DNA of 11,145 nt from a virus (taxonomy: Duplodnaviria; Heunggongvirae; Uroviricota; Caudoviricetes), in IMG/VR virus record IMGVR_UViG_2802429224_000014; one strand, 5' to 3'. The notes under the pieces were generated by a model, which had not been told where the DNA came from, did no database searches, and saw only the letters and a list, made by a program, of their open reading frames with translations. This document shows positions 1-11,145 of this stretch, one piece after another (position 1 is the stretch's first letter; every line of letters begins with the position of its first letter). A program made the translations under genes and the position numbers.

Positions 1-537
1 TTACTCGTCCAGCAGCACCACTTTGCCGATATACGGCAGATGACGGTAACGCTGTGCGTAATCGATGCCGTAGCCAACCACAAACTCATCCGGAATAGAG
101 AAACCGATAAATTCTACCGGTACGTTCACTTCACGGCGAGACGGTTTATCCAGCAGCGTACAAATCGCCAACGATTTCGGTTCGCGCAGGCTTAAGATTT
201 CACGCACTTTCGACAGTGTATTACCCGAGTCGATGATATCTTCAACAATCAGCACATCCTTGCCGCGGATATCTTCATCCAGATCTTTGAGGATTTTCAC
301 ATCACGGGTGGTGGACATGCCGCTACCGTAGCTGGAGGCGGTCATAAAATCGACTTCATGAGATACCTGAACTTCACGGCACAGGTCCGCCATAAACATA
401 AATGAGCCACGCAGCAGGCCTACCAGCACCATATCGCTGCCGCTGTCTTTGTAACGCTCAGTAATCTGACGACCCAGTTCAGCGATACGCGCTTTAATCT
501 CCGCTTCGGGGATCATTACTTCTACAATATGTTTCAT
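1..537 (-). CDS. hpt: hypoxanthine phosphoribosyltransferase
   Basis: Complete 178-aa ORF (ATG at 537..535, TAA at 3..1). The translation is essentially identical over its full length to E. coli Hpt as I recall it, including the PRPP-binding motif [13 protein letters not shown]. Confidence 0.96.
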
Positions 538-1117: not shown

Positions 1118-1320
1118 AGGTTTCCGAAAATATCAGTGAGTTAGCGATTAAGCTGGCGAGTAATTAAACTACGAAAATTTCGTAGTTTGTGACTATCTGA
1201 AAGATAGTCGGTTGATCCGGCCTCAGCCGTTGGCTGTTCCCGAAAATATCAACGGGTTAGGCTGGTTTCCCCGATGTTCGCCGCTGGCGAATTTCGAAAA
1301 TATCAACCAGTTACCGCCGT
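1118..1320 (+). repeat. three direct repeats with core CGAAAATATCA (at about 1125, 1243 and 1296), with two short palindromes between them (ACTACGAAA-A-TTTCGTAGT at 1169..1187; GACTATC-TGAAA-GATAGTC at 1191..1209)
   Basis: Read directly: gtttCCGAAAATATCAgtgagTTAgc / gttcCCGAAAATATCAacgggTTAgg / aattTCGAAAATATCAaccagTTAcc. Function unknown; the third copy overlaps the 3' end of the 1311..1595 ORF. Confidence 0.6.
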
Positions 1321-1595
1321 AACCGTTCCGGTTTCTTCCAGTGGTAAGTATTTTTCGCGCTCTCCCTCCGTTGCTGAGAACGGCGACGACATGCCAGCAA
1401 CTCGAGAACTCTGGTTCGTATGTTGCGCATATCCACGCCGTTAAGCTCGATACCGTCACGGCGCATCACCTCAGCCACTACACGCGCGTAATTTTCGGCT
1501 ACCACGCTGTCCGGCTGCATGGCCTCCTGTTTGCCTGCTGGCGGTCTGATTCCGGCAATCTGGCGAATCATTTTGAGCATTTCGGCTTCGGTCAT
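1311..1595 (-). CDS. hypothetical protein, about 94 aa, start chosen at the second ATG
   Basis: Minus-strand ORF; GGAGG lies 8 nt upstream of the ATG at 1595 (the ATG at 1601 has only a 2-nt spacer). No recognisable motifs. Sits just beyond the cosQ side of cos-A. Confidence 0.4.
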   Translation of the reverse strand: MTEAEMLKMIRQIAGIRPPAGKQEAMQPDSVVAENYARVVAEVMRRDGIELNGVDMRNIRTRVLELLACRRRSQQRRESAKNTYHWKKPERLRR

Positions 1596-1626
1596 TGTCA
1601 TGGCCTCCGTGGTGATGGAAAACAAT

Positions 1627-1845
1627 GCCGTAATTGTGGCGGGTCCTTCCTGGAAAATGAAATACCGGGGGTAGCCATACGCGCAATTCTTAACTGTTTA
1701 TGAAAATTTTTCGGGAAAAGTCAGATCCGTTCTTCTTCTCTGTAACTCATTGTTTAATGGTAAAATCATCAAAAAAAGAAAGGATCTGACAGTGGTCATT
1801 TTGGGCCAAAAATGACGTTATCAGATCCTTTCTCAGTTTTGTTCA
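1627..1845 (+). other. cos-A: lambda-like cohesive-end site in plus orientation (cosQ-like 1638..1653, cosN-like about 1664..1686, cosB with R3-like 1721..1738, IHF-like AT-rich segment 1743..1770, inverted R2-like 1777..1792, R1-like 1821..1836)
   Basis: By eye the sequence follows the lambda cos junction as I remember it: GCGGGTCCTTCCTGG (lambda CGGGTCCTTTCCGG), a GC-rich cosN-like core ACCGGGGGTAGCCATACGCGC, TTTATGAAAATTTTTCGG (lambda TTTATGAAAATTTTCCGG), CCGTTCTTCTTC (present in lambda R3), then GAAAGGATCTGACAG and TCAGATCCTTTCTC (lambda GAAAGGAAACGACAGG and CTGTCGTTTCCTTTCTC). R-site consensus here is TCAGATCC(T/G)TTCT in a direct, inverted, direct arrangement. Confidence 0.7.
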
Positions 1846-1860
1846 ATAATTGCGCGGCTG

Positions 1861-2445
1861 TCACTCACCTTTCTGTTGCCGTAATTTCTCCGGCACGTTT
1901 CCGGTTGTTTCCATCAGGTAGTCCTTCAGAATGCGGGGCAGGTTATCGGCAGTTTTAGCGCACGCATTACAGACGCGTGCTGTTTCTTTCCTCAGGCCCT
2001 CGATCATTGCCGGAGTCATCGCGGGGAACTGCCTTTGCATTGTGAGCGGTAAACTATCCATGATCGAAGAAATCTGGCGCGCCAGACCACGAAGCGCATA
2101 GAGAACGAACTCAGTATCTGTAACTTCCCCCGTCTCTCTGGCGTTCTTCAGTTCCTGCCCGTCCGCCTGTGCTTTGGTAAGACGGTAGCGTTCGTACTCT
2201 GTTGTGCCTGGCTGTAAATCTGATTCACCAGCAGCACGTAAATCATCAAGCTCCCTGCGGAGTTTTTCGTTTTCGATGTCCTTCTCCCTCTGTGCATACC
2301 ATTCGATCACCTGTGCAGAGTCGAAAGTCACTTCCACACCTTTACCCCCACCAGATACATGGGGAAGCCCTTGCGTTTGCCATCGTTCAATCGTGCGCGG
2401 ATCGACGCCAAAAATCTTCGCAATATTATTTTTATTAACATTCAT
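1861..2445 (-). CDS. terminase small subunit, lambda Nu1-like
   Basis: 194-aa ORF with AAGGAA RBS 7 nt upstream of the ATG at 2445. The N-terminal half aligns by eye with lambda Nu1 (MNVNKNNIAKIFGVDPRTIERWQTQGLPHVSGGGKGVEVTFDSAQVIEWY...IENEKLRREL...DLQPGTTEYERYRLTKAQADGQELKNAR versus lambda MEVNKKQLADIFGASIRTIQNWQEQGMPVLRGGGKGNEVLYDSAAVIKWY...). Confidence 0.9.
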   Translation of the reverse strand: MNVNKNNIAKIFGVDPRTIERWQTQGLPHVSGGGKGVEVTFDSAQVIEWYAQREKDIENEKLRRELDDLRAAGESDLQPGTTEYERYRLTKAQADGQELKNARETGEVTDTEFVLYALRGLARQISSIMDSLPLTMQRQFPAMTPAMIEGLRKETARVCNACAKTADNLPRILKDYLMETTGNVPEKLRQQKGE

Positions 2446-2459
2446 CTATCAATTCCTTA

Positions 2460-2668
2460 TCAAAAACCAGTTCCGACATGAAACGCCAAAAAAACAGGAT
2501 TTTTGGGCTTTATGATGTCGTATGTTTCTGGTGGTTGATTTTAATAAAAACAAACAGTTATGCGCGAGAAGTACCGACATGCTTTTTCCTGAAAAATTTT
2601 CATAAACAGTTAAGAATTGCGCGTACACGTACCCCCGGTGTTTCAGATTCCGGAAAGGACCCGTGAAA
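2460..2668 (-). other. cos-B: second lambda-like cos site, in minus orientation, immediately upstream of the Nu1-like gene (cosQ-like 2651..2664, cosN-like about 2620..2642, R3-like 2565..2582, R2-like about 2513..2527, R1-like 2467..2482)
   Basis: The reverse complement reads CGGGTCCTTTCCGG (identical to the lambda cosQ-proximal motif), ACACCGGGGGTACGTGTACGCGC, TTTATGAAAATTTTTCAGG, then GCATGTCGGTACTTCTCG, CATAACTGTTTGTTTTTATTAAAATCAACC (lambda CATAACTTAATGTTTTTATTTAAAATACC), GAAACATACGACATCAT and TTCATGTCGGAACTGG. The cosQ/cosN part is about 85% identical to cos-A with a 35-bp perfect core at 2591..2625 matching 1677..1711 inverted; the R-site consensus differs (CATGTCGGxAC). Confidence 0.7.
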
Positions 2669-2696
2669 ATTGGGGTGATCACCACCGTTCCGGACA

Positions 2697-2729
2697 CAAA
2701 AAAATCGCGAGGCCTTGCCAACCTCGCGA
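2697..2729 (-). terminator. rho-independent terminator between the capsid operon and cos-B/TerS
   Basis: On the minus strand, TCGCGAGG-ttggcaagg-CCTCGCGA hairpin (8-bp stem) followed by TTTTTTTGTGT, 14 nt after the stop of the 141-aa ORF. Confidence 0.6.
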
Positions 2730-2742
2730 ACGTTCATTTCAG

Positions 2743-3168
2743 TTACTTAACAGACAGCAACAGCTTTTCATCTTCGGTCAGTCCGGCGTTACCATCACCG
2801 GCTGCTGGCCCAACACATTTCGGGCTGTGCTTTTCCATGTACGCATCAAACAAAAAAGCCGTTTTCTTTTCCTGCATCATTGCCTGGGCATCCACAGTAG
2901 CCAATAACGTTTGTGCATAGGTTACTGTCATTGCTTCAGAATCACACTCAATCAGCTTACTGGTGAACTCAGGGTATTTTGATGCCAGCGGTAAAGCCTT
3001 GATACCCTCTATGCGCTGTTTATCACTCTCAGCCTTTGCAGTAAGCACCGTTCGGGCTTCTGTCAGTGATGCGCCATTATTCGCGAGATTTTCCGCAAGC
3101 GTCTGGTATTTCTGCGCTTCAGGCAGTGCCATGATCAATGCTCTGGTTGAATTTGCTTTCTCAGTCAT
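2743..3168 (-). CDS. hypothetical head-associated protein, 141 aa (possible scaffold or packaging-accessory role; unassigned)
   Basis: ORF in the capsid operon directly downstream of the gpD-like gene, with a 14-bp gap. No confident similarity recognised; position relative to E/D parallels lambda FI but the sequence does not obviously match. Confidence 0.55.
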   Translation of the reverse strand: MTEKANSTRALIMALPEAQKYQTLAENLANNGASLTEARTVLTAKAESDKQRIEGIKALPLASKYPEFTSKLIECDSEAMTVTYAQTLLATVDAQAMMQEKKTAFLFDAYMEKHSPKCVGPAAGDGNAGLTEDEKLLLSVK

Positions 3169-3182
3169 AAATCACCACAAAA

Positions 3183-3512
3183 TTATTGCCCTAAAGGCTG
3201 TACGGAAATACCGGAACCAACAAAAGCCGACACTTTTTTCTCGAACGTGTCCGCTGTATCAGGCCAGTTAATTTCATCGATATTAAAAACCCCGCACTTA
3301 TAAACCTGTGCGCGGTTTTTTGTGGCCGTGTTAATGTCCGATATGGTCAGATACACCGCCTTACCGGGTGTACCGTCCCACTCAACCATCAGGCCTGCGC
3401 CGTTCTGCATCAGCGGAGTTCTCGCTTTAATTTCTCCGGCACTGGCAAAACAGGCCAGCGTGCTGACCAGTTCCTGCGTGCCGGAAAGTAATTGCGTGTA
3501 AGGTGTTGGCAT
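3183..3512 (-). CDS. head decoration protein, lambda gpD-like
   Basis: 109-aa ORF with AAGGGGA RBS. Shares the gpD pattern by eye: TPLM...WDGT...YKxGxF...WP...AFxGxxIS (lambda ...[21 protein letters not shown]...[36 protein letters not shown]). Confidence 0.85.
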   Translation of the reverse strand: MPTPYTQLLSGTQELVSTLACFASAGEIKARTPLMQNGAGLMVEWDGTPGKAVYLTISDINTATKNRAQVYKCGVFNIDEINWPDTADTFEKKVSAFVGSGISVQPLGQ

Positions 3513-3522
3513 ACGATCCCCT

Positions 3523-4578
3523 TTATTTCACTTCGACGGTAACAAAGCGACCAATATCCACGGGTACTGGCTGCGGGGCGCTGTGCGTCTGCACGTATTC
3601 AATCGCCGGATCGCCCGGTACGATATAATTTTTCGGGTAGTACATCCCCTCAGAAAATCCCTCGCGTGCCGCGTCCTGATCCATGATGGCACCATAAGCA
3701 ACAAGGCCTTTATTTTCGGTATTGCCGAAAACCATCATGTTTTGTTTCAGGAAATATTGCTGCTGCCCGTTTTCGTCGTCATAACGACCGGAATAAACCA
3801 CGAGCGCCACATCACCGAGATACCCCTTGAAGCTGACAACGCCGCCCAAATCTTTTAGCGCAAGTTCAAGTGACGAGTTTGAACCGCGACGCGTGTCCAG
3901 GAGTTCGCGGAATCGACGGAACGAGCGCAAAATACGCCAGGCTTCGCCACCCATGACGATAATATTTACCGTACCTTCGGAAAAATCAGCGTAAGCCTCA
4001 ATGTCGCTTATCGGATCAAACGTTTCGGCATCCTGTTTTGACCATTCTTTCCCGCCAGCCTGCGTAATATGATTGGTTGCGGGTAATCCCCAGTCAATTT
4101 CATAACGCTCAATGCCTTCGCCCTCAATAACGTTACGGCCTGTTGTGATGGCATTGACCGCCAGCCATTCAACACGCGCTTTGATGGCTGCAAGCTGTTT
4201 TTTCTGGCTGTCGTGAACCATTTTTACGCGGCGTAGTGCCGGGGAAGACTGACCATTGCCGATCTGTTCTCCAGCCATGCGCATGATTGTTTTAGTGGGA
4301 TCAATAACGTGTTTGGGCTTCATATAACCCGGCGTGAAAGTGTTCGTTGTAAAACCTTTGTCACGCATAACCTGACTGCCTGACATTGGTGAACAAAACG
4401 GACTCATGACCACGTTTTCAATGTCCAGCGTATCAAGCGCAATATCTCGCGTACTGAACGTGGCGATATTCGGAAAAAACAGCGTCGTAAAGAGCGGATT
4501 AAATTTAAATTCCGGCACATCTTCGCGCCCGATATTTTTCAGTAGCGTTGGTGTGCTTACCAGTTGCAGCGCTGTCAT
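3523..4578 (-). CDS. major capsid protein, lambda gpE-like
   Basis: 351-aa ORF, start overlapping the upstream stop (ATGA). Conserved gpE blocks recognisable by eye: FKFNPLF..LFF, FTPGYMKPKH, ITQAGGKEWSK, DIEAYA, VNIIV, LDTRRGSNSSLE..LKDLG..VSFKGYLGDVALVVYSGRY, YPKN, GDPA, SAP. Confidence 0.93.
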   Translation of the reverse strand: MTALQLVSTPTLLKNIGREDVPEFKFNPLFTTLFFPNIATFSTRDIALDTLDIENVVMSPFCSPMSGSQVMRDKGFTTNTFTPGYMKPKHVIDPTKTIMRMAGEQIGNGQSSPALRRVKMVHDSQKKQLAAIKARVEWLAVNAITTGRNVIEGEGIERYEIDWGLPATNHITQAGGKEWSKQDAETFDPISDIEAYADFSEGTVNIIVMGGEAWRILRSFRRFRELLDTRRGSNSSLELALKDLGGVVSFKGYLGDVALVVYSGRYDDENGQQQYFLKQNMMVFGNTENKGLVAYGAIMDQDAAREGFSEGMYYPKNYIVPGDPAIEYVQTHSAPQPVPVDIGRFVTVEVK

Positions 4579-4784
4579 TGCTCACCCCCATGAGGCTGAT
4601 TCATGCCAAGCGCAGCGCGTAAATGGCTGCGTACCATCCAGCCGACTGACGGCTTCACCAGGCACAACGGATCAAGGCCGACTTTTTTTCCTGCCTCTGC
4701 GTTCTCCTCAAAGCGCGCATTAAGTGCGGCGATAATATCGGGGCTGATGTACACGGATACACCGCCCGGCTTCTGTGTTCCCAT
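4575..4784 (-). CDS. hypothetical protein, 69 aa, first gene of the capsid operon
   Basis: The ATG at 4784 is preceded by AAGAGGAA at 8 nt; the longer track ORF from 4850 lacks an RBS. Translationally coupled to the capsid gene. No motif recognised. Confidence 0.5.
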   Translation of the reverse strand: MGTQKPGGVSVYISPDIIAALNARFEENAEAGKKVGLDPLCLVKPSVGWMVRSHLRAALGMNQPHGGEQ

Positions 4785-4833
4785 AAATGAGATTCCTCTT
4801 TGACTAAAAAACAAACATAACGAAAAGTCAGTC

Positions 4834-4866
4834 ATGATTTTAATCATCATTGCATTTTTTGCAATG
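4834..4866 (-). promoter_or_regulatory. candidate sigma70 promoter for the capsid operon, overlapped by two palindromes
   Basis: Minus strand: -35 TTGCAA (4864..4859), 16-bp spacer, -10 TAAAAT (4842..4837), about 45 nt upstream of the 69-aa ORF. Overlapping inverted repeats CATTGCA-ttttt-TGCAATG (4848..4866) and ATGATT-tt-AATCAT (4834..4847). Confidence 0.4.
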
Positions 4867-4947
4867 CAATTGACTGTTGTTGCAAATCATGAAATTATCA
4901 CGCCGTGGTTTTATCACCCCAAACCGCATTAATGGTCATTGCATGAA

Positions 4948-4981
4948 ATCCCCCGGAACCTCATCCCGGGGGATTTTTTTT
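4948..4981 (+). terminator. rho-independent terminator on the plus strand
   Basis: ATCCCCCGG-aacctcatc-CCGGGGGAT hairpin (9-bp stem) followed by T8. No plus-strand gene lies upstream; see findings for a candidate short plus-strand transcript. Confidence 0.55.
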
Positions 4982-4984
4982 GCG

Positions 4985-5012
4985 CACAAAAAAACCGGGA
5001 AAAATCCCGGCT
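4985..5012 (-). terminator. rho-independent terminator after the SSB-like gene
   Basis: On the minus strand, CCGGGA-tttt-TCCCGG hairpin followed by TTTTTTTGTG, about 16 nt after the SSB-like stop codon. Confidence 0.6.
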
Positions 5013-5027
5013 TCTGTCACTCGTTGC

Positions 5028-5450
5028 TTAAAACGGTATGTTATCCCCGTACGGATCATCATTTCCCGCCTGTTGTTTTGCCCTGTTCAGTGCGTCAGTA
5101 GCCTGGCCCTGCTGGCCTTTTTTGCCGCCCGGTCGCGCCGTTCGCGCACTGATTACACTGTCTGCGATAACCTGCCAGCCCTGCCGCGTTTCGCCGTTCT
5201 GGCCTGTCCACTGGCTTACCTGCATGTTACCCGCCACGCTCACCAGTTCGCCTTTGTGGTGCCTGGCCAGTGCGTCGGCCTGTCTGCCAAACGCCAGGAC
5301 GGATAACCACATCGTCGCCGTTCCGTCATCGGCCTGGCTGCACGGCAGGGGAACCGCCATACTCGCCATCGCCATTTGTGTCCCTTTGCTGGTGGTCTTT
5401 AACTGCGGGTCAGCCACCAGCCGCCCGTAAGCCGCTATCTGTGCTGTCAT
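5028..5450 (-). CDS. single-stranded DNA-binding protein, short SSB-like
   Basis: 140-aa ORF with GGAGAG RBS, ending in DDPYGDNIPF, which resembles the acidic SSB C-terminal tip (E. coli SSB ends DDDIPF). The preceding Gly/Gln-rich linker and N-terminal region are consistent with an OB fold. Confidence 0.75.
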   Translation of the reverse strand: MTAQIAAYGRLVADPQLKTTSKGTQMAMASMAVPLPCSQADDGTATMWLSVLAFGRQADALARHHKGELVSVAGNMQVSQWTGQNGETRQGWQVIADSVISARTARPGGKKGQQGQATDALNRAKQQAGNDDPYGDNIPF

Positions 5451-5698
5451 GCTGTCTGCTCTCCGGTTTTAACGTTGATGGTTGTCACCTGTTCCGCTTC
5501 GGCAATCTCCCGTTCTGTCAGCGTGGCAAAGTTTGCCGCCGCCGTGGTCATGAATGCGCTTATCAGTTCGGGATGTGCTTTCGCGTATCCTTCTCCGGCA
5601 TGGCGGTCTATTGTTCTGATTGCCACCTTTAAGGCGTGCTCTGTCATGTCTAATGCGCGATATTTTGGCGCTGTCTTATCTCTGGTTTTTCTGGTCAT
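5447..5698 (-). CDS. hypothetical protein, 83 aa
   Basis: ORF whose stop overlaps the SSB-like start; RBS spacing at the first ATG is poor (GAGGA 1 nt before ATG), so the start is uncertain. No motif recognised. Confidence 0.45.
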   Translation of the reverse strand: MTRKTRDKTAPKYRALDMTEHALKVAIRTIDRHAGEGYAKAHPELISAFMTTAAANFATLTEREIAEAEQVTTINVKTGEQTA

Positions 5699-5699
5699 T

Positions 5700-5898
5700 C
5701 CTCACTACCACTCACTTTTATTACTCACTTTTTAAACCTACTCACTTCGCCTCACTTGAGATTAATTGTTTTCGTATCTGTATGTTTCATAAATATTTTT
5801 TCACCGCTCACTTTTTTGGGTGTATACAGGTGAGAAAGTGAGTAATTGTGTTAATTATTTGTAAAATTCTCACTATCACTCACTTTTACTCCTCACTT
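5700..5898. repeat. iteron array (at least 10 copies of CTCACT(TTT), some inverted) around an AT-rich core; putative replication origin
   Basis: Read directly: ctcactaccactcacttttattactcactttttaaacctactcacttcgcctcacttgag ... AT-rich 5761..5800 ... gctcactttttt ... gtgagaaagtgagtaa (inverted) ... ctcactatcactcacttttactcctcactttt. Lies immediately downstream of the primase/ATPase gene. Confidence 0.6.
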
Positions 5899-5899
5899 T

Positions 5900-7306
5900 T
5901 TACAGTGGTCCTACATCATCGCCGTCGATGTGAATCACGCCGTCTTTTTCCAACTTGGATAGCCAGCGCCGCATATTTTTCACATCGTACCCAAGCCTTT
6001 TCATGTCATCGCGCAACAACGGGATAGTGCATTTATCGCCTCGCTGTATGCGTGAACGGATACAGCCCCAAAGCGCTGTATGATTCTCCGTCTTGTTCCC
6101 GGCCTCCTCGATGCGTTCCAGTTCAGCAGGGGCGCGGGGAACGTCAATCACCACCATGGACACAATCTCTTCGCCATCTGTATCGGTAAACACCTCCACG
6201 CTTTTAAGGTCGTATGCGCTTTCTTTTGGCTCCTCTGCGTCCTTCATCTTCGTACACGCCGCCACCAGTGCTGTAACGTCTGAATTTTCCCGGCTGATTC
6301 GGTACTCTGCATCCAGTGCAGCACGGAATGCGCTGGAACCACGCGCCCCCTTTGTTTCATCCTTGCCGGAATGGTGAACCACCAGCACCGTGGCCCCTGT
6401 GGCCTGCTTTATCGCGTCACACCCCTGGATAAATGCGCCCATATCACGGGAATCATTTTCATCATTCCCACCAAAGCAACGGGCCAGCGTGTCTATCACA
6501 ATCAGCCGCACATTTTCGCCCGTTCTGCTCTTAACAAGTCCGGCAGTCCTGATAACCTGCTCCACATAGTCAGGCGATGCAGGGAAGACAGGCGCGTTAA
6601 CGATGCACAAATCCGTAACCACCTTGTCGTGGGTTATCTCCCACGCCTTAACGCGGCGTTTTACGCCCATGCTGCCTTCACCAGCGATATAGATAACCGC
6701 GCCCTTACTGACCCTGCGACCTCCCCATGCCATACCTGTGGCAACATGGCACGACCAGGAAATGGCGAGGAACGATTTATAAGAACCGCTGGCCCCGTAG
6801 GTGCTGCATAATGATTCAGCCGGAATAAGCCCCTTAATTACGTAGCTTTGCTGCGCGTCGAATCCCTCAGAACCCCATGAGATGGGAAGTGTGATTTTTC
6901 GCTTTCCACCATTCATGACCAGGCTTTCCCCACGTTCCCAGGTTTCTTTAAGGCGCGGTAGTTGCTCGCTCCAGTCCTCCAGTAGTTCGAAATTCTCTGA
7001 AAGTAACCGCGCTTCCCGGACACCTGCGATCGCCAGTTTGGTGGCAATGGTCAGCATCTGCATATCGTCCAGGTTTCCGGCGCGTATGACCTTTGCTCTG
7101 TATCGTCCTTCATCAACAATCTGTAAATTGTCCAGTTCGCTTAACTGATAACGGCCCAGGTAAACCGGAGGGATGGGATCGCCTGCTTTTTTGGCCTGTG
7201 CAATCATGTAATGTTCTGCAAAGGAGTGAGCATTATCACCCGCAAAAATAACCGCCTCAGTGTGTTTATCTTTCGGTAACAGTTTTACGTTTGGTGCCAG
7301 TTTCAT
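5900..7306 (-). CDS. replication protein: primase-like N-terminal region fused to a RecA-like (AAA_25/RepA-type) ATPase
   Basis: 468-aa ORF with AGAGGT RBS. Walker A-like GASGSYKS and Walker B-like RLIVIDTLARCF are visible, followed by VLVVHHSGKD. The domain order is typical of satellite/PICI primase-replicase proteins; assignment is by motif, not search. Confidence 0.85.
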   Translation of the reverse strand: MKLAPNVKLLPKDKHTEAVIFAGDNAHSFAEHYMIAQAKKAGDPIPPVYLGRYQLSELDNLQIVDEGRYRAKVIRAGNLDDMQMLTIATKLAIAGVREARLLSENFELLEDWSEQLPRLKETWERGESLVMNGGKRKITLPISWGSEGFDAQQSYVIKGLIPAESLCSTYGASGSYKSFLAISWSCHVATGMAWGGRRVSKGAVIYIAGEGSMGVKRRVKAWEITHDKVVTDLCIVNAPVFPASPDYVEQVIRTAGLVKSRTGENVRLIVIDTLARCFGGNDENDSRDMGAFIQGCDAIKQATGATVLVVHHSGKDETKGARGSSAFRAALDAEYRISRENSDVTALVAACTKMKDAEEPKESAYDLKSVEVFTDTDGEEIVSMVVIDVPRAPAELERIEEAGNKTENHTALWGCIRSRIQRGDKCTIPLLRDDMKRLGYDVKNMRRWLSKLEKDGVIHIDGDDVGPL

Positions 7307-7602
7307 TTTTTACCTCTGGATGCGCTGAGCATGCTTTTTATTTTCTTAATATTTTCCCGTGCTTTTTCCCTGCTGGTGGGCTTACCGCGTGTTGCGTTCT
7401 GTACCAGAGAAAAATCACGCCGGAACTGATAAACAGGCATCACGCAGTCATAGCCGTACCCATCACGGCGGTAAGTAACACACCGTCCCGCCACGCTTTT
7501 AATCGTTACAGTGCCGCCGTATTTATCTTTGAAAATATCGCCGGGGCAGATTTCAGGCCGAGGGAGGCCGCTGGCAGTAAAGCCAGAATTTTTCTGTTTC
7601 AT
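7303..7602 (-). CDS. hypothetical protein, 99 aa
   Basis: ORF with GGAGAA RBS; its stop overlaps the primase start (ATGA), suggesting translational coupling. Function unknown. Confidence 0.55.
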   Translation of the reverse strand: MKQKNSGFTASGLPRPEICPGDIFKDKYGGTVTIKSVAGRCVTYRRDGYGYDCVMPVYQFRRDFSLVQNATRGKPTSREKARENIKKIKSMLSASRGKK

Positions 7603-7607
7603 GGTTT

Positions 7608-7835
7608 TTATTCTCCGGTGTGATGCGTTTTATTATTCTCGTGAATTGCCATCACCGTATTTAATTCGTTAATTACTGGCGTTAATAATGTGTGCACGGC
7701 AGAAAACATCATGGGATATGATTCATCGCCATTTTCCGGCACTTCCATTAACTTAAGTAATAATGCCTCCATTTCCTTTGCGCGGATTAATGCATTCTCA
7801 GAATGAATAAGAACATCAAAGGGTATTTTATGCAT
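7608..7835 (-). CDS. hypothetical protein, 75 aa
   Basis: ORF with strong RBS AGGAGGTGA 4 nt upstream of the ATG; overlaps the upstream gene by 8 bp. Function unknown. Confidence 0.55.
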   Translation of the reverse strand: MHKIPFDVLIHSENALIRAKEMEALLLKLMEVPENGDESYPMMFSAVHTLLTPVINELNTVMAIHENNKTHHTGE

Positions 7836-8025
7836 GACTCACCTCCTGACGAATACGGGCGACGAATACAGCGACACAACCGGACGGGCAACGGTTACGC
7901 GCTTCGCGTTCTGTCCATGCGGTGACGTGGATGATTTGAGATTCTCCGGCACTCAGTGCCAGAAAACGCCACACAAAGGCCGTTTGTGTGTGCGCTAGGC
8001 GTGGGGTATGCTGTCTTACAGCCAT
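7828..8025 (-). CDS. hypothetical protein, 65 aa, first gene of the leftward replication operon (alternative start at 8040)
   Basis: GAGAGGT RBS 7 nt upstream of the ATG at 8025; the ATG at 8040 has no RBS. Function unknown. Confidence 0.45.
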   Translation of the reverse strand: MAVRQHTPRLAHTQTAFVWRFLALSAGESQIIHVTAWTEREARNRCPSGCVAVFVARIRQEVSHA

Positions 8026-8475: not shown

Positions 8476-8760
8476 TTATGCAGCTTTCTTACCGTACGGA
8501 TTATTGACTTTATCTACAGCAGGTGGGTTACGAACCCACCAAAGCACATCAGAGAGAAGCCACGCACAGCTATTGCGCCCGAAATGACAACGAAGCGGGA
8601 AACGCCCTTCATTTTCCATTTTGAAGCGAGTTGAGCGCGACAGACTGGTGATTTCCTGGCATTCCTTTTCACGGATACGGCGATCAAATTCAAAACCGTA
8701 TTCTTCAAGAAGCGCCCGGCGTTGTTCTGGAGTTGGGGGAATGAATGTAGTTTTTGTCAT
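8476..8760 (-). CDS. alpA: AlpA-family transcriptional regulator / excisionase-like HTH protein
   Basis: Start taken at the ATG at 8760 (GGAGG RBS 4 nt upstream), giving 94 aa. Contains the AlpA signature EITSLSRSTRFKMENEGRFPLRCHFGRNSCAWLLSDVLWWV (compare the family pattern LSRSTIYR...GxFP...W...V..W). Confidence 0.8.
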   Translation of the reverse strand: MTKTTFIPPTPEQRRALLEEYGFEFDRRIREKECQEITSLSRSTRFKMENEGRFPLRCHFGRNSCAWLLSDVLWWVRNPPAVDKVNNPYGKKAA

Positions 8761-8842
8761 ATTGCCTCCACTGTATCTATGCTTGCGGAGGCTATTTTGC
8801 AATCTTTAATACTGGATTAAAATACAGTAGTAATCATAGAAA

Positions 8843-8875
8843 CATACTGATAATGCTTATAAATATATCAGTATG
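8843..8875. promoter_or_regulatory. perfect 10-bp inverted repeat CATACTGATA-N13-TATCAGTATG upstream of alpA
   Basis: Read directly in the AT-rich region between the 309-aa gene and alpA; candidate operator in the alpA promoter. Confidence 0.45.
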
Positions 8876-8897
8876 CTTAGGAGTATATGAGTAAGGC

Positions 8898-9827
8898 TTA
8901 CTGCGACCTTTCACTCGGCCTCTTATGAGCATTACTTAAAATTGCTGCTATTTTTGTTTCTGTTTTTATTGGCAATTCACTATTAATGAACCAATCAGGT
9001 CTGGCGATCAACTCACGAGCCCAAGCAGAATAGTTAATCGTTCCATCGTTTTTTCTGCAGGTCTCATTAAAAGTATTTTGTTGCTCTTCTTTAAAACGCA
9101 TAGCAACCATTAAAATTTGCTCTCGATTTCTTGCATGTCTTTCAGCAGAATGGTGCACAATTTCATTGCCATTCATCTTGTGAGGTTCTACAGATTCAAA
9201 ATTATCTGTTAGCGTAAAATAATCGCCACCACAGTCAAGAAGTCGCCTTATATCATGAGCGGTAATCCACAAGTCATTTATAGAAATATTATTCTTTAAT
9301 ATTTGATCGTCTTCTTCATCATAATCACTATCTTCACCAACCATTAAAAGTTGTACGGCAGGATTATCAGTTTCTGGATGACACGGGGTTAATTCAAAAC
9401 CACTTAGGGAATACTCTCCAAAATTTTGTAGCTCTTCCAGCCCACTCCAAAGGCGCCACAATCCATAAGCCCTACCAATAGAGCTAAAGCATCCGTTTTC
9501 TGAGTCTTGACCGAATAAAGGCGCGTGTATAGTTTCATCTGTCTCCTCGTTATAATTGTATCTGAAAAGATGAAATCTGGAGTATTCAGTAATATTGTTC
9601 CCCATCAGTGATGTGGTCGATTTTGCATTTCTGGTATCAAACCAAGCAGTTGCAGACTTGCTATCAGTATTCATATATAAAACAGCGCGAGCATCAAATA
9701 AATTTAGGCATAAAGCTATTTTTTTAGTAACACCTAAATTCACGAGATCGCTAATCTCGCAACCCAGCAATCTTGATGCACGTTCAATGTTGCAATACTG
9801 AAAAGGAATTTTAATGTCGTTAGCCAT
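8898..9827 (-). CDS. hypothetical protein, 309 aa, AT-rich orphan gene between int and alpA
   Basis: Long ORF with GAGGG RBS 5 nt upstream of the ATG. Visibly AT-richer than the rest of the island. No catalytic motif recognised; the N-terminal 40 aa could form an HTH, followed by an acidic stretch DSDYDEEDD. Confidence 0.7.
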   Translation of the reverse strand: MANDIKIPFQYCNIERASRLLGCEISDLVNLGVTKKIALCLNLFDARAVLYMNTDSKSATAWFDTRNAKSTTSLMGNNITEYSRFHLFRYNYNEETDETIHAPLFGQDSENGCFSSIGRAYGLWRLWSGLEELQNFGEYSLSGFELTPCHPETDNPAVQLLMVGEDSDYDEEDDQILKNNISINDLWITAHDIRRLLDCGGDYFTLTDNFESVEPHKMNGNEIVHHSAERHARNREQILMVAMRFKEEQQNTFNETCRKNDGTINYSAWARELIARPDWFINSELPIKTETKIAAILSNAHKRPSERSQ

Positions 9828-9918
9828 TGCGCTACCCTCAACGCCCTAAATACTTTACGAGCCAGGCGGGTAGGGTTTCCCGCTTTTCGGTTGGCCGACC
9901 TATGCCCGTAATATCAGT

Positions 9919-11145
9919 TTAACCTCTATTCGATACAGGTAACAGCACCACATTTTGATGATTACCCGCCAGAAGTTCTAATCGGCCATACCACTTATTC
10001 AACGCATCCATTTTCTCAGGTAAGTACAGACTACGGTTATAAATAGCCATCACCCCCGGCAATGCATGACCAAGTAAAAGCTCTACAATATGTGGCGCAA
10101 TACCCATATTATTTAAACCTGTAGAAAATGTTCTGCGCAAATCGTGAAGCGTCCATGGCTCATTATGATGAAAATCTTTGTATAGCCTACGCCCTTTAAG
10201 CGAAGCAGCCTGGCGGGAACGTTCTTCACCCAGTACAATTCCTGTTTTTCCCGTTTCCTTTTTTAGATCCTCAATCCATGGGCGAATGCCCTCTGGAATT
10301 GGACGAACTATTTTTTCACGAGTTTTGCTGTGTTCTTTAGGAACCGTCCAAATCCATGACTGAAAATCCCATTCACTCCACCGGGATAATCTTACTTCCA
10401 TTGTTCGCGCCCCAAACAGCACAAGCAACTTAAGCAGACGAAGATAATAAAGTTGCTGTTCATCGCTATAAGTACACCGCCATACATCAGCTAACTCACT
10501 ATCTGACAGCACCCTATCACGCTGCCCCGATGGTTGCCCTACATCCTGGATTGTCATAAAAGCCAGGGCATCACATGAGGCATAACGGCGAACCTTGCAG
10601 AATCTTAAGGCCTGTTTACAAATCTGGAACATTCGCCCGGCAGTGATTGGCCTGGACTGGTTAATTTCATCAAAACATGCCACCCAGTGACGCGTTTCAC
10701 ACCGGGATAACGGATAGTGGCCAAGACGCGGATAAATATGCTTACGTAATTGCGCCCGCACCAGTTCCTCGTCACTACGTTTTTTTCTTGCGTAATGAAT
10801 TAGCCAATATTCAAGGGCATCATGGACAGTTACGGGGTTAAGGTTTTCTTCTGCGCTAAGTTCTAATTCAAGTCGTGGATTCAGCCCTTCCGCATACCAT
10901 TTTCGGCATAGTTCCCTCTTCTCCCTAGCCATTTTCAACGACATGTCAGGGTAACGCCCAAGAACAATGCGCTCTAACTTGCTCCCACGCCCACCAAGAC
11001 GATAAGAGAAAACCCAACTAATGCATCCCATCATGGATACTTTGATGCTTAATCCTTCACCATCCGCAATGGTAATTACTGAATCCCGCTTTACGCCGAG
11101 AAGCGATCTTAATTTTTTATCACTCAGTTTGTTTGTGCCAGCCAC
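9919..11145 (-). CDS. int: tyrosine recombinase/integrase, P4-family; N-terminus at or just beyond the window edge
   Basis: 408 codons from a GTG at the window edge to TAA at 9921..9919. N-terminal region resembles the P4-type integrase arm-binding domain (KLSDKKLRSLLG...ADGEGLSIKVS). C-terminal catalytic residues are visible: HDLRRTF, LLGHA and a tyrosine in AIYNRS. Confidence 0.92.
   Translation of the reverse strand: MAGTNKLSDKKLRSLLGVKRDSVITIADGEGLSIKVSMMGCISWVFSYRLGGRGSKLERIVLGRYPDMSLKMAREKRELCRKWYAEGLNPRLELELSAEENLNPVTVHDALEYWLIHYARKKRSDEELVRAQLRKHIYPRLGHYPLSRCETRHWVACFDEINQSRPITAGRMFQICKQALRFCKVRRYASCDALAFMTIQDVGQPSGQRDRVLSDSELADVWRCTYSDEQQLYYLRLLKLLVLFGARTMEVRLSRWSEWDFQSWIWTVPKEHSKTREKIVRPIPEGIRPWIEDLKKETGKTGIVLGEERSRQAASLKGRRLYKDFHHNEPWTLHDLRRTFSTGLNNMGIAPHIVELLLGHALPGVMAIYNRSLYLPEKMDALNKWYGRLELLAGNHQNVVLLPVSNRG

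Follow-up and report, generated by a model that had tools for sequence, protein, structure and literature searches.

The 11,145-nucleotide window analysed here (IMG/VR record IMGVR_UViG_2802429224_000014) contains a ~10.6-kb Escherichia coli island that is an ordinary phage satellite, namely a cos-type Gram-negative phage-inducible chromosomal island (PICI) of the EcCICFT073 family. Four minus-strand open reading frames (ORFs) at positions 2743-4784 form its capsid cassette: they encode a 69-aa protein, a gpE-like major capsid protein (MCP), a gpD-like decoration protein and a 141-aa protein, and are followed by a cos site and the gene for the small terminase subunit (TerS). A capsid cassette without portal, protease or large terminase subunit (TerL) is already published and widespread in the family, and the headline feature is in that respect a rediscovery. 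What is new is the assignment of the 141-aa protein, by sequence comparison, as a scaffold homologue, a census in which the four genes recur in fixed order, the evidence that they are under purifying selection, and the point that the islands used to test the cassette had been marked within it. On balance, and with modest confidence, we favour a reading of this EcCICFT073-family cassette as an accessory shell kit, whose proteins would enter DNA-filled heads built on the portal and protease of a helper phage.

An EcCICFT073-family island with a four-gene capsid cassette

We assign the island to this family because its cassette is syntenic with c1498-c1501 of EcCICFT073 (63, 65, 50 and 28% identity, in that order) and is accompanied by an integrase, AlpA, the int-alpA RNA, a RepA helicase, SSB, cos and TerS. 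The CFT073 arrangement is a 68-aa ORF, a 351-aa MCP, a 111-aa decoration protein and a 137-aa ORF, then RppA. The general features of PICIs are also present: a size within ~10-15 kb, a specific chromosomal attachment (att) site and a terminal tyrosine integrase; AlpA downstream of int and co-oriented genes, with all major ORFs on the minus strand; a replication initiator of its own with a putative origin (ori) just downstream; and cos with an Rpp/TerS module, the virion proteins being supplied by a helper.

The MCP, which has the HK97 fold, matches PF03864 (Phage_cap_E) over its full length (residues 25-349, E 2.9e-47, 161.8 bits against a cut-off of 22.9) and the structures 3BQW and 7VI9 in the Protein Data Bank (PDB), the first of which is the crystal structure of c1499 itself. 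The 109-aa decoration protein passes the gathering score of PF02924 (HDPD; 33.6 bits against a cut-off of 29.1) and matches gpD and SHP structures, including 1C5E and 7VII, at ~E 5e-9. An earlier sequence-only reading of the window had proposed these two identities along with a Nu1-like TerS; Pfam matches bear out all three, as do identities to the lambda proteins of 45% (gpE), 34% (gpD) and 51% (Nu1, over 180 residues). It had also observed that the order, E then D, is reversed relative to lambda, and we find D then E in every phage examined, i.e.: lambda, phage 21, Gifsy-1 and three prophages.

Two small proteins of the cassette were left as unknowns in that reading, and we could assign one of them. 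The 69-aa protein has no match in 50,697 phage records, and its AlphaFold2 (AF2) model, three helices with a predicted local distance difference test (pLDDT) score of 78, gave no significant fold neighbour when compared with the PDB and BFVD. A role as ribbon-helix-helix regulator had its sole basis in the N-terminal GGVSVYISPDI motif, and given the lack of a fold neighbour we set it aside. An alternative upstream ATG at 4850 would extend the protein to 91 aa. The other small protein, of 141 aa, is a scaffolding-protein homologue.

Putative control signals frame the cassette. Upstream of the 69-aa gene, a promoter-like block is near-invariant in 14 distinct PICIs of two subfamilies, with 62 of the last 100 upstream positions invariant, and it is kept (4837-4892) although the MCP genes of the two subfamilies share only 66% DNA identity. 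This conserved block, with the palindrome it contains, may be an operator for a regulator. An intrinsic-terminator-like hairpin closes the cassette, and two further terminator-like hairpins, read by eye, follow ssb, so that the cassette is framed on both sides.

A free-standing scaffolding domain

Homologue searches with the 141-aa protein, both word-indexed and by exhaustive phmmer, returned near-identical proteins only. We therefore relied on pairwise, PHROG and profile-profile comparisons, which agree in placing it as a free-standing homologue of the Nu3/gp6-type scaffolding domain. Its residues 7-140 align by BLASTP with residues 362-492 of the 498-aa gpC of Gifsy-1 (33% identity, E 6e-8), and the protein matches the extreme C-terminus of phrog_53 ('head maturation protease'; E 1.6e-8). 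The homologous c1501 matches residues 115-192 of the phage 21 scaffolding protein gp6 (E 4e-11). In a prophage-embedded relative of the island, the 141-aa protein is homologous to the C-terminal end of the S49 protease encoded by the surrounding prophage (E 2e-10). With hhalign, a profile of 42 distinct PICI proteins was compared with six phage gpC proteins (templates of the Gifsy-1 / phage 21 type), giving a match of 98.1% probability (E 8e-14) between query residues 6-126 and positions 364-481 of 492. The homology thus falls on the C-terminal scaffolding part of gpC, the region characterised by repeat units and the motif F-x-x-F/Y-M-x-x-H-S-P. A direct comparison with lambda Nu3 is weak (BLASTP E 0.12; 43% probability in hhalign with lambda as the template master sequence), the lambda protein being too diverged for a direct match.

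Compared with lambda C/Nu3, D and E (in phage 21 gp5/6, shp and gp7), to which the scaffold, decoration and capsid proteins of the island are homologous, the satellite cassette differs in several ways. Its order is E, D, scaffold; the scaffold is free-standing, lacking both the protease and the N-terminal part of Nu3; identity to the phage proteins is 33-48%; and the cassette is preceded by the satellite-specific 69-aa gene.

The island lacks portal, protease, TerL and tail genes

Six-frame tblastn searches of the window with lambda A, W, B, C, FI and FII and with the TerL, portal and protease of a helper prophage found nothing below E 0.1 for portal, protease, TerL, W, FI or FII. The sole exception is a match between the 141-aa ORF and the scaffold region at the C-terminus of the helper protease (E 1.3e-8). 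Pfam and PHROG scans gave no match to TerL, portal, maturation protease or head-tail adaptor/connector in any ORF, and there are no adaptor or tail genes in the ~10.6-kb island. Sid, Psu, delta and alpha primase, expected of a P4-like satellite, were not found in the same scans either, and for replication the island encodes a RepA-type protein. The sequence-only reading had noted that portal, protease, TerL and tail genes are missing; these searches confirm it and, because none of them is encoded in the island, it depends on a helper for all four.

In strain HNSQ2209, whose copy is 98.4% identical to the window, the island lies between the core genes hpt and gcd. An att-like core, CAAAAGTGATAyACC, is found at both borders, spanning ~10.57 kb. 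With core genes and att-like sequences on either side, the window can be taken to contain the whole element, which ends inside it or only just past its edge, and we can discard the possibility, raised with the sequence-only reading, that its portal, protease or TerL genes are located elsewhere. For the same reason the island is not a helper-embedded PICI here, its flanks being hpt and gcd.

The cassette is fixed in order and under purifying selection

Our census comprises the 80 IMG/VR loci that carry a PICI-clade capsid protein. The MCP is full-length and free of stops in all 80, the 69-aa protein in 79 (one locus has a partial match) and the decoration protein in 78. A scaffold homologue is found in 71 loci, all of which (71/71) have the same four-gene order; among the nine loci that lack it, four end at a contig edge. 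Nu1-like TerS is present in 40/80 loci and Rpp in 20/80. Not one island in the census contains portal, protease or TerL: these genes occur in four of the loci, always beyond the integrase boundary, i.e. in the prophage that hosts the island. The search for portal and protease in homologous islands that the sequence-only reading had suggested thus came out in its favour, and pseudogenisation of the E- and D-like genes in homologues, which would have spoken against it, is rejected by the intact genes.

Comparisons of close relatives gave a dN/dS of 0.09-0.15 for the MCP, and of 0.15-0.25 for the scaffold homologue. There are no internal stops, and the decoration protein shows few changes, mostly synonymous in most pairwise comparisons. 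Purifying selection on the cassette is clear.

In a neighbour-joining tree the capsid proteins of PICIs group separately from phage gpE, in a single clade within which homologues range from 100% down to ~48% identity. The gene context was verified for seven PICIs and four phages: the contexts of the PICI clade (Edwardsiella, Salmonella, Serratia and Escherichia) are all PICIs, and the phage-clade members sit in full head modules. Island-type MCPs share at most 48% identity with any deposited phage MCP, and even the MCP of a close relative is only 46% identical to that of the prophage around it. A single MCP protein cluster has 1,951 member sequences, and a distant-DNA search detected capsid-like sequence in 1,881 of 5,426 complete E. 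coli genomes, a count that is made up in part of phage gpE. A scan of genome contigs with a single MCP query returned no relative.

Packaging module

Aligning the window to lambda cos and to the cos of a helper-type prophage, we recognised two cos sites, which form a 124-nt inverted repeat around terS with 78% complementarity. The two sites have different putative cosN cores of 12 nt, neither of them the same as in lambda, and lambda cosN (GGGCGGCGACCT) is not present in the window, even allowing two mismatches. The left half of the cos of the prophage that hosts relatives of the island (GGGTCCTTTCCGGAATCTGAAACACCGGGGGT) is approximately the same as in the window.

The island TerS matches the lambda TerS chain 6HN7_B (E 2.9e-38), and no Rpp was found in the window. 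From its sequence the protein looks mosaic: the C-terminal half resembles the TerS of the prophage hosting relatives (L018, 40052-40561) and the N-terminal DNA-binding domain is Nu1-like, unrelated to the DNA-binding domain of the host prophage TerS.

Relation to EcCICFT073 and other satellites

The sequence-only reading had described the cassette as a distinct strategy. This does not hold, since the same cassette is c1498-c1501 of EcCICFT073, the prototype of Gram-negative cos PICIs (Fillol-Salom 2018 and 2019), where c1499 was named a capsid protein and c1500 a head decoration protein in 2018 (PMC6092414). Capsid genes have been described as the late gene most often found in Gram-negative PICIs, occurring in 21 of 29 reference elements, and transfer does not require them (PMC10111431); reviews have remarked on the puzzle they pose. 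The two islands share the order int, alpA, replication module with ori, SSB, four-gene cassette, cos with packaging gene and a ~93-aa ORF, and each carries a pair of cos sites; EcCICFT073 needs just one of its two. They differ in that the island studied here has a full-length Nu1-like TerS in place of RppA and a RepA-family helicase in place of the D5-type primase, lacks PerC, uses a different integrase and attachment site (hpt-gcd), and has putative cosN sequences unlike lambda's.

With capsid-forming PICIs (cf-PICIs) such as EcCIEDL933 the island shares the logic of int, alpA and rep, and the possession of an HK97-fold capsid protein and a TerS of its own. The sequence-only reading was right to contrast it with cf-PICIs for their full head module including portal and protease. 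They also encode TerL, HNH, portal, protease and head-tail connectors, none of which is found here, and make small heads of their own. Another comparison is with the cos-packaged satellite SaPIbov5, whose Ccm is a capsid-protein homologue in an element without portal or protease, and which provides a precedent for a satellite MCP that co-assembles with helper proteins (PMC5052747, PMC8569155). SaPIbov5 is nevertheless a Gram-positive element in which Ccm works with the scaffold and capsid protein of the helper and has a demonstrated effect on size and shape, whereas the E. coli cassette adds a decoration protein and a scaffold of its own.

Relatives that are ~90% identical in DNA over window positions 1309-7847 and carry the same cassette are embedded in prophage late regions. 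The host prophages combine lambda-type head genes with a P2-type contractile tail, and are candidate natural helpers of the island. Six relatives (L004, L010, L011, L015, L016 and L018) are helper-embedded; L015, L016 and L018 (E. coli SA53-3 and PapRG-04-4) and L011 (Salmonella) lie between the head and tail modules of such prophages. The published helper-embedded PICIs (11capE; PMC10111431) differ from the copy in the window, which is chromosomal (hpt-gcd) and has a different integrase.

Possible roles of the cassette

Under the accessory shell kit reading that we favour, induction by a lambdoid helper, most likely one with lambda-type head genes and a contractile tail, would lead the island TerS to bind the cosB of the island and recruit the helper TerL, directing it to the island's own cos. 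The cassette proteins would co-assemble on the portal-protease initiator of the helper, the satellite gpE-like protein would end up in expanded, DNA-filled heads, and the matching gpD-like protein could bind to these. The cassette would thus be accessory rather than essential. In lambda, gpD binds to expanded heads only. Because of this, and because a satellite-specific decoration protein is co-conserved with the MCP and the scaffold homologue, the satellite MCP would be expected to reach the expanded state. Assembly on the helper portal and protease, which the sequence-only reading had already proposed, gains some support from the scaffold homologue together with the purifying selection.

Several observations weigh against this reading. 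Deletion of c1499 or c1500 left both transfer and lambda interference unchanged, and the packaged DNA of EcCICFT073 was phage-sized (PMC6092414). Among the post-ori genes cloned singly, rppA (c1503) was the sole inhibitor of lambda (PMC6739421). Islands in which cas9 or melA replaces c1498-c1501 have been made in a phi80 delta-cosN lysogen and delivered to recipients, and in the laboratory EcCICFT073 can do without the cassette when transferred by lambda, phi80 or a resident prophage. Moreover, some related PICIs have no scaffold gene, namely L006, L007, L009 and L011 as well as ~5/80 loci. The published negatives are, however, weakened by the design of the islands. The 2018 capsid experiments used either c1501::tetA, which marks the scaffold homologue, or c1499::cat, so that the marker was inside the cassette throughout, and part of the work relied on non-native helpers; lambda and phi80 are not native to EcCICFT073, whose native helper is CFT073 prophage 4.

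The four genes could also amount to more, namely a minimal shell kit for making heads specific to the satellite, possibly below T=7 in size, with the portal and protease of the helper as their base. This would place the island between classical PICIs and cf-PICIs in capsid autonomy. We regard this as possible but doubtful. Such a role would have been missed so far, because the islands tested were marked in c1501 or c1499 and often paired with non-native helpers.

It seems unlikely that the MCP, scaffold homologue and 69-aa protein serve to redirect head size, building T<7 heads on the helper portal that take up the 10.6-kb genome once or twice and leave no room for the genome of the helper, for which SaPIbov5 Ccm and possibly PmCI172 would be precedents. 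Scaffolds usually set head size and the cassette has a scaffold homologue, the island is 10.57 kb long, and PmCI172, which has an MCP homologue, produces small heads (PMC6092414). The size data for EcCICFT073 appear to stem only from islands marked in c1501 or c1499, but what they show is phage-sized DNA exclusively, with no monomer band, and transfer of the c1499::cat island was higher, not lower, than that of the tetA island. A lambda-sized head already fits four island copies (~42 kb), and several relatives do without the scaffold gene.

Interference functions are common in the post-ori region of PICIs, and at 45-48% identity between satellite and phage MCPs a mixed lattice could be defective. 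One might then suspect that the satellite capsid proteins co-assemble with those of the helper, or of a competing lambdoid phage, and poison or divert head assembly. We consider this quite unlikely: c1499, c1500 and c1501 cloned singly left lambda plaques unreduced, deletion of rppA alone restored plaquing fully, and deletion of c1499 or c1500 gave no relief. A poison would also need no matched decoration protein, since gpD binds only to expanded heads.

The head genes A, B, C and E are the integration targets of helper-embedded PICIs (PMC10111431). Relatives of this island lie inside prophages, and what the cassette represents is E, D and the 3' part of C; the genes might thus be captured helper head genes, kept as a back-up copy that compensates for those disrupted by integration. 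This is very unlikely, as an interrupted helper gene is restored on excision, neither this island nor EcCICFT073 is embedded, the satellite MCP clade is old (~46% identity to the host prophage MCP), and the relative L004 sits in a portal gene without having a portal gene of its own.

Finally, we give hardly any credence to decaying or neutral cargo, a dispensable 'adaptable module' without current function: particle production and delivery from the phi80 delta-cosN lysogen after cas9/melA replacement, and the lack of a c1499 phenotype in published work, would fit it, but the MCP is intact in 80/80 loci and the gene order in 71/71, dN/dS is ~0.1, the cassette is kept across Escherichia, Salmonella, Edwardsiella and Serratia, and its promoter and terminator blocks are conserved.

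Other features of the island

The remaining features are listed together with the cassette in Table 1. The iteron-like repeats flank an inverted repeat just downstream of repA, and judging from this arrangement the region 5701-5902 is probably the replication origin. Small ORFs between AlpA and the RepA helicase include a DUF4222 protein. For the 309-aa ORF (8898-9827) there was no Pfam and no PADLOC match; its position between int and alpA is typical for accessory cargo. PADLOC found no defence protein among the small or unassigned ORFs of the window. The small ORF that follows the packaging gene, for which the annotation of the HNSQ2209 locus gives a hypothetical protein of 94 aa, recurs in 60/80 related loci. 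A region with few ORFs separates the att side from the last ORF, and four ~45-nt direct repeats within it (960-1314, core GAAAATATCAACGGGTTA) may be arm-type or regulatory binding sites.

Strain HNSQ2209, the one closest to the window in sequence, has a second island (L100, 1763648-1797755) at tRNA-Pro/yejM. Its capsid cassette is 99.9% identical and its TerS has the same protein accession, whereas its integrase is different and its repA is broken by IS5. The pair points to module exchange between PICIs.

Table 1. Features of the island and its border, in order of position in the window.
Feature	Position	Strand	Details
hpt	1-537		window end
Conserved small ORF, ~94-104 aa	1311-1625	-	downstream of packaging gene; phrog_1561, E 2.9e-47
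Second cos-like site	1632-1755	+	inverted relative to the first; putative cosN GGGGTAGCCATA (1668-1679); lambda-R3-like TCCGTTCTTCTTC
TerS, Nu1-like, full-length, 194 aa	1861-2445	-	Pfam Phage_Nu1, E 4.5e-67; in the place of Rpp
Lambda-type cos upstream of terS	2548-2671	-	cosQ-like GGGTCCTTTCC; putative 12-nt cosN GGGGTACGTGTA (2624-2635); TTTATGAAAATTTTTC
Intrinsic-terminator-like hairpin closing the cassette	2705-2729	-	10-bp stem, then T7; kept in relatives
Scaffolding-domain homologue, 141 aa	2743-3168	-	c1501 homologue; free-standing, without protease domain
gpD-like head decoration protein, 109 aa	3183-3512	-	Pfam HDPD, phrog_49
gpE-like MCP (HK97 fold), 351 aa	3523-4578	-	Pfam Phage_cap_E
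69-aa protein	4575-4784	-	c1498 homologue; stop overlaps start of capsid gene; phrog_3255
Promoter-like site of the cassette	4837-4865	-	TTGCAA, 16-nt spacer, TAAAAT; predicted by consensus scan
Palindrome ATTGCAAAAAATGCAAT	4849-4865		overlapped by the -35 hexamer of the promoter-like site
Replication module	5028-7306	-	RepA helicase, iteron-like repeats, 83-aa ORF, SSB
SSB	5028-5450	-	Pfam SSB, E 8.6e-16
Iteron-like 34-nt direct repeats	5701-5734, 5869-5902		CTCACTAnCACTCACTTTTA...
RepA-family helicase	5900-7306	-	Pfam AAA_25, E 7.7e-43
Integration and regulation module	8476-11145	-	integrase, int-alpA RNA, 309-aa ORF, AlpA
AlpA	8476-8802	-	Pfam Phage_AlpA, E 3.8e-11
309-aa ORF	8898-9827	-	between int and alpA; low GC (0.36-0.39); phrog_7144 sole match
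int-alpA RNA motif	9844-9910	-	between integrase and 309-aa ORF; Rfam RF02996, 55.2 bits
Tyrosine integrase	9919-11145	-	Pfam Phage_integrase, Arm-DNA-bind_3

Implications

The cassette is very common and clearly under purifying selection. A scaffold as its third structural gene, together with the fact that the knock-outs were made in cassette-marked islands, turns its role into a cleanly testable question. If the cassette proteins stay out of the particles, the island is simply a typical PICI. If instead they do enter them, classical PICIs would lie on a continuum of capsid autonomy that leads toward the cf-PICIs, and engineered PICI delivery vehicles, which now discard c1498-c1501, might behave unlike the natural islands from which they derive.

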